Source: Verrucomicrobiia bacterium
Lineage (GTDB): Bacteria > Verrucomicrobiota > Verrucomicrobiia > Limisphaerales > UBA1319
NCBI GenBank assembly: GCA_963664225.1
Contig: OY760937.1
Coordinates: forward strand, 1,792,001-1,856,000
Direction of reading: 5' to 3'
DNA: 64,000 nt
In this document: positions 1,918-3,891 of the stretch, one piece after another
How the letters are laid out: each line of letters starts with the position of its first letter
Numbering within the stretch: the stretch's first letter is position 1
Notes under the pieces: generated by a model
Databases searched by the model: none
Seen by the model: only the letters and a program-made list of their open reading frames with translations
What the model was told of the DNA's origin: nothing
Position numbers and translations under genes: made by a program

Positions 1918-1963
1918 CCGGGGGAGGAGGGGCGGCACGCGAAGGGGGGAGGAGCAACGGTAT

Positions 1964-2905
1964 TTAATTTGAGAGTGCAAAATCTGGGTTTTTGAGGATT
2001 TGGTTCATCAGGACAATGAGTTTGCGCATGACGGCGGTGAGCGCGACTTTGGCGGGCTTGCCCGCCAATCGGAGTCGTTCGTAGAACTCCTTGAGTTGGC
2101 GATTGCAGCGCGCAGCCACCAGGGCGGCCATGTAGAGGGCACGTCTAACGGCGGCTCTTCCGCCACCGATGGAGCGGCGGCCTTGCCACTGGCCGCTTTC
2201 TCGAGGATGTGGAGCCAGTCCGGCCAAGGCGGCGGCCTGCCCCCGATTGAGCGTGCCCAACTCGGGCAGCTCAGCCAAAACCCCCAAGGCGGTAATCGCG
2301 CCCACCCCGGTGATGGCTTCGAGTTTTTTTGCGCGTTCATCCAGTTCTGTGGTTTTCTGGCGCAGCGCTTTGAGTTGGGTCTCGATATGCTCCAGATCCC
2401 GTTCCAATCGACGCAGCAGGCTCTGGGCCTGGCGGCGCAACTTGGGCAGCGTGAGGCGTTCGATCTGATGGCGCTGGCTAATAAGCAGATCAAGGATCTG
2501 AGTGCGGCGGCGAACCAGTTCGGTCAACTGCTCCTCCACCTCGGAACGCGCGGGCGTGGGTTTGGGGGCGAAGGCCTGCCCATAGGCGGAGAGGACGGCG
2601 GCATCTATACGGTCGGTTTTGGCCCGTTGTCCCTGGGCGCGGGCGAAATGCCGGACGCGGGCGGGATTGATGATGCTGACAGGAATGCTGGCATGATGGA
2701 GGGCGTCAGCCACCTCACGCTCGTAGCCGCCGGTGGCTTCACAGATGACGTGAGCGCCGGGATGCTGCGCCAGGAGTTTGACGAGCTGGCGATGACCGGC
2801 GGCGGTATTGGGCAGATGGTGGGAACGACCGGCCAGTTGGAGATCAAGACTCAGCTTGGCAATATCCAAACCAGCGTAGATAGTGGTCATAGTGTTCTGG
2901 CTCAT
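1964..2905 (-). CDS. IS110 DEDD recombinase/transposase
   Basis: GLDIAK, CEATG, KTDRIDA (DEDD) and RESG serine motif; start at 2905 or 2890. Confidence 0.97.
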   Translation of the reverse strand: MSQNTMTTIYAGLDIAKLSLDLQLAGRSHHLPNTAAGHRQLVKLLAQHPGAHVICEATGGYEREVADALHHASIPVSIINPARVRHFARAQGQRAKTDRIDAAVLSAYGQAFAPKPTPARSEVEEQLTELVRRRTQILDLLISQRHQIERLTLPKLRRQAQSLLRRLERDLEHIETQLKALRQKTTELDERAKKLEAITGVGAITALGVLAELPELGTLNRGQAAALAGLAPHPRESGQWQGRRSIGGGRAAVRRALYMAALVAARCNRQLKEFYERLRLAGKPAKVALTAVMRKLIVLMNQILKNPDFALSN

Positions 2906-3114
2906 TCTTGTAAATACGAGCAGGCCTTGGTGGGCCGCTCAAGCAACGGTTCGAGTTTAGGACACAGGCACGAACGGCTCTGGCTCCTCGCGCATTTGGT
3001 TAAAAACCAATGCAAGAAGGAAACGAGCTCGTCCGCGCCACTGTCCTGCCGCCTGCAGGCGGCAGGACAGTTCCATCTATTCCGTCTTTTCAAACAAAAC
3101 AAGAATAGATGGAA
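2892..3114 (-). ncRNA. Predicted bridge RNA of the IS110 element
   Basis: Two internal loops, each with inner and outer stems: guides TTTCCTTCT (3023-3015) and GAGGAG (2989-2984); ACCGTTGCT (2950-2942) and TACAAG (2912-2907). These match the element flanks and ends. Transcript ends are approximate. Confidence 0.85.
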
Positions 3115-3136
3115 AATCAGATACAAGGAAGGAAGG

Positions 3137-3167
3137 AAACCGCTAATGGGAGGGAATTGACGCTAAT
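3137..3167. repeat. AAACCGCTAAT..GCTAAT repeat unit
   Basis: Same family as 166-243 (reverse complement AAACCGCTAATTGACACTAATTGCCACTAAT). Confidence 0.65.
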
Positions 3168-3235
3168 AGGAAGGGAATGGGGATTTGGAAAATGATATTT
3201 AGCCTGATTTACAGTTTCTCTGCGAGGCGATGGCC

Positions 3236-3258
3236 GAGCCGGCTGAAAGCCGGGACTC
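3236..3258. repeat. REP-like hairpin forming the intron 5' exon
   Basis: GAG-CCGGCT-GAA-AGCCGG-GA-CTC; continues as CATAC (3879-3883) after the intron. Confidence 0.7.
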
Positions 3259-3878
3259 GTGTGTCTGGCAGGTATTGGATCTATTGGGATGAAAGGAGCC
3301 CAACGGGGGCGGTGACGCCAACCGTAGCGGTAGGCCAGGTTCGATCCGCGAGGGTCGGGCGCGAAAGGGCCGAGAGCAAAGGCGCGACCGTAGGAACACG
3401 AACGGGCAGTGAGGCCGGGTGCGTGGGTTAGCTGGCGAGTAACGGCGAAACCCAAAGGTCATCCAAACGCATCAGGTAGAGCCCGGCGGCGCGCGCCGAC
3501 AGAGTCAATACCGACCCAGAGAGATCTGTCCCGTGAGAGCGGGACAGAAGTCAGCAGAGGCCATAGTAGTGATGAGGCCCGGTGAAAGCCGGGAGGAGCG
3601 AAGGGCCGAAGGAACAAACGGAGCCAACCAAGGCGTTGGACATGAGGACGAGTGATGGAATGAAGCAACAGGACGCAACAATTACGGTTACCATCCTGGC
3701 ACTGGCAAACGGCGGGCCCAACGCTGGAAGCGCCCAACCCGTCGAAGCATTCCGGGGTCACATGTCTGCACGACTGGGAAGGAAGAACTCTGAATGTTCC
3801 AACCGCCGGATGCGAGAAAACCGCACGTCCGGTGGTGTGGGAGGGTGCCGGGGCGAAATCCCTGGCACCCGACCCGAT
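3259..3878 (+). mobile_element. ORF-less group II intron, class IIC (620 nt ribozyme)
   Basis: 5' GTGTG; GAAGTCAGCAGAGGCCATAGTAG D3 motif; D5 ACCGCCGGATGCG..CGCACGTCCGGTGGT (3802-3836) with CGC triad; D6 hairpin ending ACCCGAT; D4 only ~190 nt with no RT/YADD. Confidence 0.92.
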
Positions 3879-3891
3879 CATACTCCGGAAC

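Follow-up and report, generated by a model that had tools for sequence, protein, structure and literature searches.

A full-length IS110-group insertion sequence with a probable IS621-type bridge RNA in a verrucomicrobial genome

Insertion sequences of the IS110 group raise the question of whether the RNA that would guide them can be read from their DNA alone. One such element lies in the 64,000-nucleotide (64-kb) stretch of a Verrucomicrobiia genome analysed here (hereafter, the window), and the original prediction for this locus had described it as an IS110 element whose bridge RNA could be fully decoded. Bridge RNAs were described in 2024 and, according to PMC11208160, are predicted in 85.7% of IS110-group elements. 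Our analyses indicate that positions 1953-3127 on the minus strand are very probably a full-length IS110-group insertion sequence working like IS621. The ends of the element, its CT core, the protein family and the catalytic residues were established computationally, as were the RNA stems and the correspondence between guides and DNA, both of the latter by covariation. The strongest evidence is a natural experiment: between two sub-families of the element, A and B, the flanks of the insertions change in step with the guides.

The element, its ends and its copies

The element measures 1175 bp including the CT at both ends, that is, 1173 bp plus one CT target core, with a left end of 237 nt up to an ATG at 2890 and a right end of 11 nt. 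On the left side of the minus strand, the flank ...GGTTTCCTTCCTTC is followed by the CT at 3127-3126 and then by TGTATCTG...; on the right side, ...AAATTAA-ATACCGTTG runs to 1955 and is followed by the CT at 1954-1953 and then by CCTCCCCCC. Its two ends, CTTGTAT... and ...ACCGTTGCT, do not form an inverted repeat, and long terminal inverted repeats are absent. The features at the borders are listed below; TGTAT, ACCGTTG and the CT of the right junction were read from the sequence.

3128-3134, minus strand: left target half TTCCTTC, outside the element (6/9 match to the left target guide, core included)
3126-3127, minus strand: CT core, left junction (sequence and copy comparison)
3121-3125, minus strand: TGTAT, left end
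1953-1963, minus strand: right end ATACCGTTG plus CT core, 11 nt past the stop codon
1955-1961, minus strand: ACCGTTG, right end
1953-1954, minus strand: CT core, right junction
1947-1952, minus strand: right target half CCTCCC of the window copy (with the core, 7/8 match to the right target guide)

The source genome, a single contig of 5.78 Mb, harbors five copies of the element, with identities to the window copy of 100, 99, 98, 93 and 93%. Sub-family A consists of the window copy, L002 and L003 (98-100% identical), and sub-family B of L004 and L005. The termini are identical across all five copies, which start with CT-TGTATCTG and finish with ATACCGTTG-CT, and CT stands on both sides of each of them. 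No solo ends were found in the genome: left-end and right-end 22-mers (up to 2 mismatches) occur five times each, and every one of them is paired.

An empty-site model was built by joining the flanks of a copy with a single CT, and was searched genome-wide with up to 4 mismatches. The model of L003, a 30-mer obtained by removing the element and one CT, gave 30 genome matches, and 8 of the 15 matches listed were exact over 30/30 positions. The L004 model gave 17 matches, the closest among those listed having 1 mismatch, the L002 model gave 4, and the L005 model gave 0 within the same limit. Because the L003 30-mer recurs exactly elsewhere in the genome, the element ends and the CT core are fixed. 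Thus, borders and core are established at the family level, and from them we infer the empty site of the window copy. The original prediction had named this site as TTCCTTC-CT-CCTC; its CT core and borders are upheld by the models of L003, L004 and L002, but the window copy's own site finds no match in the genome. The other sequences named in that prediction were all recovered at their minus-strand positions.

A total of 24 public sequencing runs were listed, all as assembled contigs, and four of them (X2, X7, X5 and X9) were compared with the window. Contigs of these four runs stop at 1950-1953 and 3127-3128 or run into different flanks, and the element is present in these samples at 90-100% likeness with different flanks; in run X9, for example, the junction is at 1951. 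Run X5 has a joint 1913->3218 (side 29), which falls in repeats and does not correspond to the precise empty site. Assembled contigs of this kind are unable to reveal RNA ends, circles or rare empty sites. In the sole RNA run among the 24, 5% of the sampled words were present.

Structure of the left-end RNA

The left end folds far more stably than expected for its composition. The region 2892-3127 reaches -113.1 kcal/mol, compared with -67.9 +/- 4.9 kcal/mol for shuffled sequences (z -9.2; 0/200 shuffles as good), and the minimum-free-energy (MFE) fold of the 218-nt RNA starting at the first hairpin, at -106.2 kcal/mol, is a two-internal-loop layout. In this fold, stem-loop 1 (SL1, 3113-3072) and stem-loop 2 (SL2, 3071-3040) are followed by internal-loop stem-loops at 3039-2967 and 2955-2901. 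The layout agrees with the published description of the IS110 group, in which a 5' stem-loop precedes two internal-loop stem-loops, a variable one and then a conserved one (PMC11208160). Opening all four guide segments by constraint costs 8.3 kcal/mol, because both target guides can pair together. The parts of the predicted RNA are as follows.

3072-3113, minus strand: SL1, first 5' stem-loop, CCATCTATTC ... GAATAGATGG (fold and covariation)
3040-3071, minus strand: SL2, second 5' stem-loop, a perfect palindrome with TGCA apex (fold and covariation)
2967-3039, minus strand: target-binding stem-loop with outer stem, internal loop and inner hairpin (fold and covariation)
2992-3013, minus strand: inner hairpin of the target loop (fold)
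2901-2955, minus strand: donor-binding stem-loop with 4-bp basal stem CUCG/UGAG, internal loop and inner hairpin (MFE fold)
2918-2940, minus strand: inner hairpin of the donor loop (fold and covariation)

For the covariation analysis, 79 related loci were fetched (40-81% protein identity, mostly labelled Verrucomicrobiota). Among 62 distinct upstream stretches, 60 from these relatives and 2 from the source genome, we aligned the 43 that comprise those with the conserved donor-loop 10-mer plus L048, and excluded 19 more distant ones. In the 43 sequences, RNAalifold recovered the outer stem of the target loop (13 pairs) and the donor-loop inner hairpin (8 pairs), with 20 of 25 pairs compensatory. 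The cells were paired in 94.1% of cases versus 32-42% when the partners were slid, and the covariation score was 0.506 versus 0.08-0.11, a value reached by 0/500 shuffles. Compensatory changes were found at 12 pairs of the target-loop outer stem and at 4 pairs of the donor-loop inner hairpin. The inner hairpin of the target loop was assessed singly, since MAFFT aligns it badly; when each sequence was folded by itself, at least 5 pairs formed in 40/40 distinct and very divergent sequences.

The two 5' hairpins were examined in a separate alignment of 20 out of 36 left-end starts, chosen by eye as having the same type of first hairpin, with 16 excluded. Here, 95.4% of cells were paired versus 45-61% with slid partners (0/500 shuffles). 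SL1 has 10 pairs, with 91% of cells paired and 4/10 pairs changed on both sides, and SL2 has 14 pairs, with 98% of cells paired and 11/14 changed on both sides. The apex of SL2 is a self-complementary tetranucleotide (TGCA or GGCC) in 19 of the 20 aligned relatives, the exception being L036 with TGTA; a role for this apex in loop-loop pairing or as a site for a dimeric protein, for example, is conceivable. In Rfam, no family matched the left end at E values up to 1 or at gathering scores, apart from a chance match of the palindrome to mir-4773 (21.8 bits versus a gathering score of 100).

The target-loop/donor-loop layout of the IS621 type, as originally predicted, therefore rests on the MFE fold, on the covariation of the stems in both alignments (43 and 20 sequences) and on the guide-DNA covariation described below. 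Folding and stem covariation had themselves been proposed as checks at the outset, and both came out in favor of the prediction.

Guides and their correspondence to DNA

According to PMC11208160, a left guide has top-strand sense and finishes with the core, whereas a right guide is the complement of that strand and, read as DNA, starts with the core. Read in this way, the internal loops contain four guide segments.

3014-3022, minus strand: left target guide TTTCCTTCT, ending in two bases that read the CT core (covariation with targets at positions 4-9)
2984-2991, minus strand: right target guide GCGAGGAG, which reads CT-CCTCGC as its reverse complement (covariation at the core and about 5 positions)
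2942-2950, minus strand: left donor guide ACCGTTGCT (9/9 identical to right end plus core)
2907-2915, minus strand: right donor guide ATTTACAAG (7/9 between its reverse complement and the left end)

The short matches that had first drawn attention to the two loops are all confirmed. GAGGAG, at 2989-2984 in the target loop, and CTCCTC, at 1954-1949, are exact reverse complements. In the donor loop, the 9-mer ACCGTTGCT occurs twice in the window, at 2950-2942 and in the right end at 1961-1953, both on the minus strand, and TACAAG at 2912-2907 is the reverse complement of CTTGTA in the left end. Over its whole length, the reverse complement of the right donor guide, CTTGTAAAT, matches the left end CTTGTATCT at 7/9 positions, the first 6 of which are contiguous. 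A 6-mer match by itself is not above chance; the matches exceed chance because five copies share identical ends, empty sites exist elsewhere, and guides covary with flanks both in the genome and among relatives.

Within the genome, the differences between the two sub-families are concentrated where the target would be specified. Sub-family B carries the target guides CCATTCCCT (left) and GTCGGGAG (right), which differ from those of sub-family A at 7/9 and 3/8 positions, respectively, compared with 8/205 positions in the rest of the left end (1/104, 4/23 and 3/78 in its three parts) and 62/927 in the gene. The flanks read ..CCTCCTT-CT-CCTGGG in sub-family A (L002 and L003), and ..GTTCC-CT-CCCTGC and ..GCTCC-CT-CCCCGC in sub-family B. 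The genome thus contains a natural control, in which target loops and insertion sites have shifted together while the remaining RNA is nearly identical.

The same correspondence was observed across relatives, whose left ends were located by CTTGTAT with at most 1 mismatch; L067 (misaligned), L036 (loop deletion) and any row that lay at a contig end or had a gap in a guide were excluded. Over 7 non-core positions, left guides matched their cognate left targets at a mean of 4.39 positions versus 2.30 for non-cognate ones (33 distinct pairs), and over 6 non-core positions, right guides matched cognate right targets at 4.54 versus 1.85 (35 distinct pairs); neither value was attained in any of 10,000 permutations. 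By position, the left guide matches at chance level at positions 1-3 (0.24-0.45) and at 0.76-0.97 at positions 4-9, and the right guide matches at 0.97, 0.97, 1.0, 1.0, 0.89, 0.71 and 0.63, and then at 0.31. From this per-position matching it follows that the clade reads approximately 4 + CT + 5 bp, and the predicted target encoded by the window element is CCTT-CT-CCTCG, of 11 bp. The claim of a fully decoded bridge RNA therefore needs to be narrowed: the guides are readable and supported by permutation, but they cover only about 4 + CT + 5 target positions, and the left guide fits its own flank poorly. With this restriction, the guide code of an IS110 element was read correctly from raw sequence.

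Natural targets and the insertion site of the window copy

The sequence CCTTCTCCTGG, one mismatch off the encoded ideal, has 41 exact occurrences in the genome, whereas base composition predicts 3.7. Of the 40 contexts listed for it, about 31 belong to a single repeat, at least about 70 nt long, with a hairpin CCTTCTCC-TGGG-GGAGAAGG, and L002 and L003 are inserted in two copies of this repeat, which resembles repeated extragenic palindromic (REP) sequences. The main target of sub-family A is the 5' hairpin arm in the REP-like repeat (..CTCCTCCTT-CT-CCTGGGGGAGAAGG..). The repeat itself (..TGCAATAAACCCAGGGCTCGCAATACTCCTCCTTCTCCTGGGGGAGAAGG..GGGATGAGGGCG..), with its hairpin arms CCTTCTCC/GGAGAAGG, is found for example at G000:C1:116963, 3288293 and 4439573. 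A second repeat, CTCYCTCCRRCTCYCTCCCCRCTCGTGCCT (17 matches), is the site of L004.

The window copy occupies a non-repeat site, which the right guide fits well and the left guide poorly. Its right half, CT-CCTCCC, matches the right target guide at 7/8 positions, and the left guide TTTCCTTCT fits the REP-like sites of L002 and L003 (7/9) better than the window copy's own flank. The window copy may therefore represent either an off-target insertion or an insertion whose flank has been altered since. A recent preprint on in vitro work (10.64898/2026.08.31.748434) reports that IS621 can insert off target where only half of the bridge RNA is matched, and by analogy alone a half-match insertion of this kind would fit the window copy. 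We also considered whether the poor left match arose from a flank swap through inversion between the window copy and L002, which is inverted and lies 54 kb away; this was rejected, because the two flanks of L002 jointly match the REP-like repeat.

The flanks of the window copy (1830-1930 and 3128-3260) are composed of short repeat modules, which also occur, arranged differently, in tandem-like arrays at G000:C1:619-622 kb (period about 615 bp), 1676-1679, 1960-1964 and 3669-3672 kb. In runs X2, X7 and X5, contig depth over 1855-1925 exceeds that of the adjacent sequence several-fold.

The recombinase

The left end is followed by the recombinase gene.

1964-2890, minus strand: recombinase gene, 308 amino acids (aa) from the second ATG (open reading frame, domains and structure alignment)

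The open frame at 2905-1964 on the minus strand gives 313 aa from its first ATG. The start codon is, however, probably at 2890, giving a 308-aa product, since the first ATG (2905) is replaced by AAG in sub-family B and by AAG or AGG in close relatives, while the ATG at 2890 is conserved. The probable ribosome-binding region is GAATGAG/GAAGGAG, 8-15 nt 5' of this ATG. The protein contains the Pfam domains PF01548 (DEDD_Tnp_IS110, N-terminal RuvC-like) and PF02371 (Transposase_20, C-terminal Tnp), each at E ~1e-19, and matches the NCBIfam model NF033542, 'IS110 family RNA-guided transposase', with 202 bits versus a cut-off of 140. Over residues 5-301 in the 308-aa numbering, it matches the structures of IS621 (8wt6, E 7.6e-39) and ISCro4 (9t56, E 5.6e-39). 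The catalytic residues of IS621 are D11, E60, D102, D105 and S241, followed by G242 (PMC11208158), and with an offset of +2 in the chain numbering of the structure alignment, D9, E51, D93, D96, S232 and G233 of the present protein align with them.

The recombinase gene is open in the window copy, L004 and L005, and the window copy is the only intact copy of sub-family A. An intact, compact recombinase of about 310 aa had originally been proposed: the gene is indeed open with all catalytic residues, and its start is more likely at 2890; the description as compact does not hold, since 308 aa is only about 5% below the 326 aa of IS621 (PMC11208158) and thus no distinction.

Proposed mechanism and alternative explanations

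By analogy with IS621, transcription of the left end would yield a bridge RNA of about 200 nt, consisting of two 5' hairpins followed by the target-binding and then the donor-binding stem-loop, and the 308-aa DEDD/Ser recombinase would bind this RNA. The donor loop would pair with ACCGTTG-CT-TGTAT, the junction formed by the ends of the element after excision, and the target loop with genomic sites that read CCTT-CT-CCTCG. Strand exchange would then occur at the CT core, and would therefore leave a CT on both sides of the inserted element.

Several observations weigh against this interpretation, in which transcription of the RNA, its binding by the protein, the circular intermediate and present-day activity are all carried over from IS621. 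No RNA run contained the element. A standard scan of the integrated left end revealed no sigma-70-like promoter on the minus strand, and the modelled circle junction of the window element and its nearest relatives contained none under loose criteria (at least 3/6 matches in the first hexamer, at least 4/6 in the second and at least 8/12 overall), which do not cover the promoter rules of the host phylum. In 13 of 30 relatives, a TTGCCA-like hexamer in the right end is followed after 16-18 nt by TATCTT or TATGTT in the left end, spanning the junction, so that the conserved left-end TGTAT would be part of a -10 box. The left half of the window copy's site, TTCCTTC-CT, matches the left guide at 6/9 positions and at only 2/4 of the informative non-core ones. 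The empty site of the window copy has 0 genome matches within 4 mismatches and no orthologue in 30 relatives, where matches are confined to the coding part of a neighboring isomerase gene at up to 80% identity; the intergenic insertion site is not conserved among these relatives. Moreover, 43 of the 62 upstream stretches were picked by their donor-loop 10-mer, and the tested structures come from the same alignments. The basal stem CUCG/UGAG of the donor loop is invariant in the alignment and is therefore beyond the reach of the covariation test. Finally, sub-family A has damage in two of its three copies: in L002, TAC>TAG at codon 270 introduces a premature stop, so that 269 codons are read, and L003 carries an 18-bp in-frame deletion within the RuvC-like domain.

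This damage would agree with an alternative hypothesis, namely that the element is of the bridge-RNA type but has become an immobile relic, either in the window copy alone or throughout its sub-family in this genome, with its RNA unmade or its recombinase inactive. The presence of only five copies, the lack of a recognizable promoter in both the integrated and the modelled circular form, and the lack of a circle junction or empty site in the contigs of the four runs would agree with it as well. However, the missing circles are uninformative, as contigs are unable to reveal rare circles, and the gene of the window copy is uninterrupted with all catalytic residues present. In addition, ends and donor loop are identical in the five copies, sub-family A copies are 98-100% identical, and contigs of other runs join near-identical element ends to different flanks (e.g., 1951 in X9). 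We regard an immobile relic as unlikely.

It could also be supposed that the left-end structure is an ordinary regulatory element of a 5' untranslated region (UTR), for example for translational control, and that the matches between the loops and the element ends arose by chance. Its 3' end does overlap the probable ribosome-binding region (GAATGAG/GAAGGAG, 8-15 nt before the ATG at 2890), and simple arithmetic gives about 1 in 20 for one 6-mer match in a 222-nt left end. Against this stand the flank matches of both guides, which exceed 10,000/10,000 permutations, the clustering of the substitutions between A and B in the guide segments with the flanks changing alongside, and the 9/9 donor guide; such an explanation is highly improbable. 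An IS1111-type (seekRNA) element, with its guide RNA from the right end, belongs to the same protein family, but this reading is hardly credible and is refuted by the anatomy of the element, whose right end extends 11 nt past the stop codon versus a left end of 237 nt that contains all four guide segments, as expected from the RNA being in the left end in the IS110 group and in the right end in IS1111 (PMC11208160).

Comparison with known systems and significance

An insertion sequence working like IS621 thus remains our preferred interpretation, and the two elements can be compared part by part. As in IS621 of Escherichia coli, the recombinase has a DEDD RuvC-like domain, a coiled coil and a Tnp domain with the catalytic Ser (alignment over 297/308 residues), the element has a long left end, a very short right end and a CT core, and the RNA follows the order of 5' stem-loop, target loop and donor loop with the same sense of guides. 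The natural target again lies in a repeated palindromic element one position off the ideal encoded by the guides; in IS621, the natural REP target ATCAGGCCTAC differs from the loop-encoded ATCGGGCCTAC at one position (PMC11208160).

Other features differ. The recombinase has 308 aa versus 326 in IS621, and there are two 5' hairpins instead of one, as a result of which the RNA would have about 200 nt versus 177. The left guide shows about 4+2 covarying positions versus 7+2 in IS621, and the right guide about 2+5 versus 2+2, although longer right guides in some orthologues have already been reported (PMC11208160). No clear junction promoter was found here, and the host phylum, judged by the relatives of the element, is Verrucomicrobiota. 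The original prediction of donor and target specificities different from those of IS621 is borne out for the target (CCTT-CT-CCTCG versus ATCGGGC-CT-AC) and for the left half of the donor (ACCGTTG versus ACAGTAT), but not for its right half, CT-TGTAT, which is identical; the donor oligonucleotide of IS621 contains ACAGTAT-CT-TGTATG (PMC13396178).

Other relatives are more distant. ISCro4 (9t56), the best match in the structural database with the same domains and catalytic residues, is only a distant relative; under the name IS622, it is a bridge recombinase for human genome rearrangement (10.1101/2025.05.14.653916). Insertion into REP sequences present in many copies is shared with ISPpu9 and ISPpu10 of the IS110 family in Pseudomonas putida, but host and target repeat differ, and the small-RNA gene described downstream of the ISPpu9 transposase was not seen here. 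IS1111/seekRNA elements share the recombinase family and the RNA-guided logic; unlike the present element with its 11-nt right end, they have a right-end RNA and longer sub-terminal inverted repeats (PMC11208160).

Taken together, the element is a good but ordinary example of an already described system. It leaves the understanding of that system unchanged, and the NCBI model NF033542 already carries 'RNA-guided transposase' in its name. We propose only tentatively that the verrucomicrobial clade has a geometry unlike that of IS621 (an extra 5' hairpin, a self-complementary SL2 tetraloop, and target guides of about 4+CT on the left and CT+about 5 on the right, short and long being reversed relative to the 7+2 / 2+2 of IS621), with natural re-targeting between two repeat families and with the window copy as a possible half-match insertion. 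Our literature search revealed no paper pairing a bridge RNA with Verrucomicrobiota; as the supplementary tables of PMC11208160 lay outside this search, the clade may already be catalogued there. As a candidate tool, the element would add one more orthologue, whose recombinase is somewhat smaller and whose right target guide is longer.

Other elements and genes in the neighborhood

The genome also contains a second IS110-group family (L006-L015), with five copies on G000:C1 near 1762, 2332, 2569, 2578 and 3487 kb and a recombinase that is 55% identical. Its layout is alike, with a left end CT-TGTATGTTTG, two hairpins and a right end ACACCGTTG-CT. Its left guide is TTCCAATCT and its right guide reads CT-GCCGTAC; the flanks, ..TTCCAGT-CT or ..TTCCAAC-CT and then GCCGTAT.., fit these guides and lie in another repeat, CGTAGCGCAGAC..., which also flanks the relative L040 in another organism.

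A group II intron without an open reading frame is located at 3219-3883 on the plus strand, 92 bp from the left end of the element, and was recognized by RF02001 (D1-D4) at 3342-3510 with 84 bits and by RF00029 (D5-D6) at 3801-3878 with 44.7 bits. Further copies of this intron are present in the genome at 98-99% identity, two of them nearly full and one interrupted. One copy, G000:C1:3175523-3176152, sits 2.3 kb from L003; with the intron beside the window copy, two intron copies are thus found near two of the five insertion sequence copies.

By the right flank of the element, the gene at 1118-1750 on the minus strand encodes, judging from its translation, a putative secreted peptidyl-prolyl isomerase. 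This gene is the only part of the neighborhood that is conserved in the relatives, with 68-80% DNA identity.

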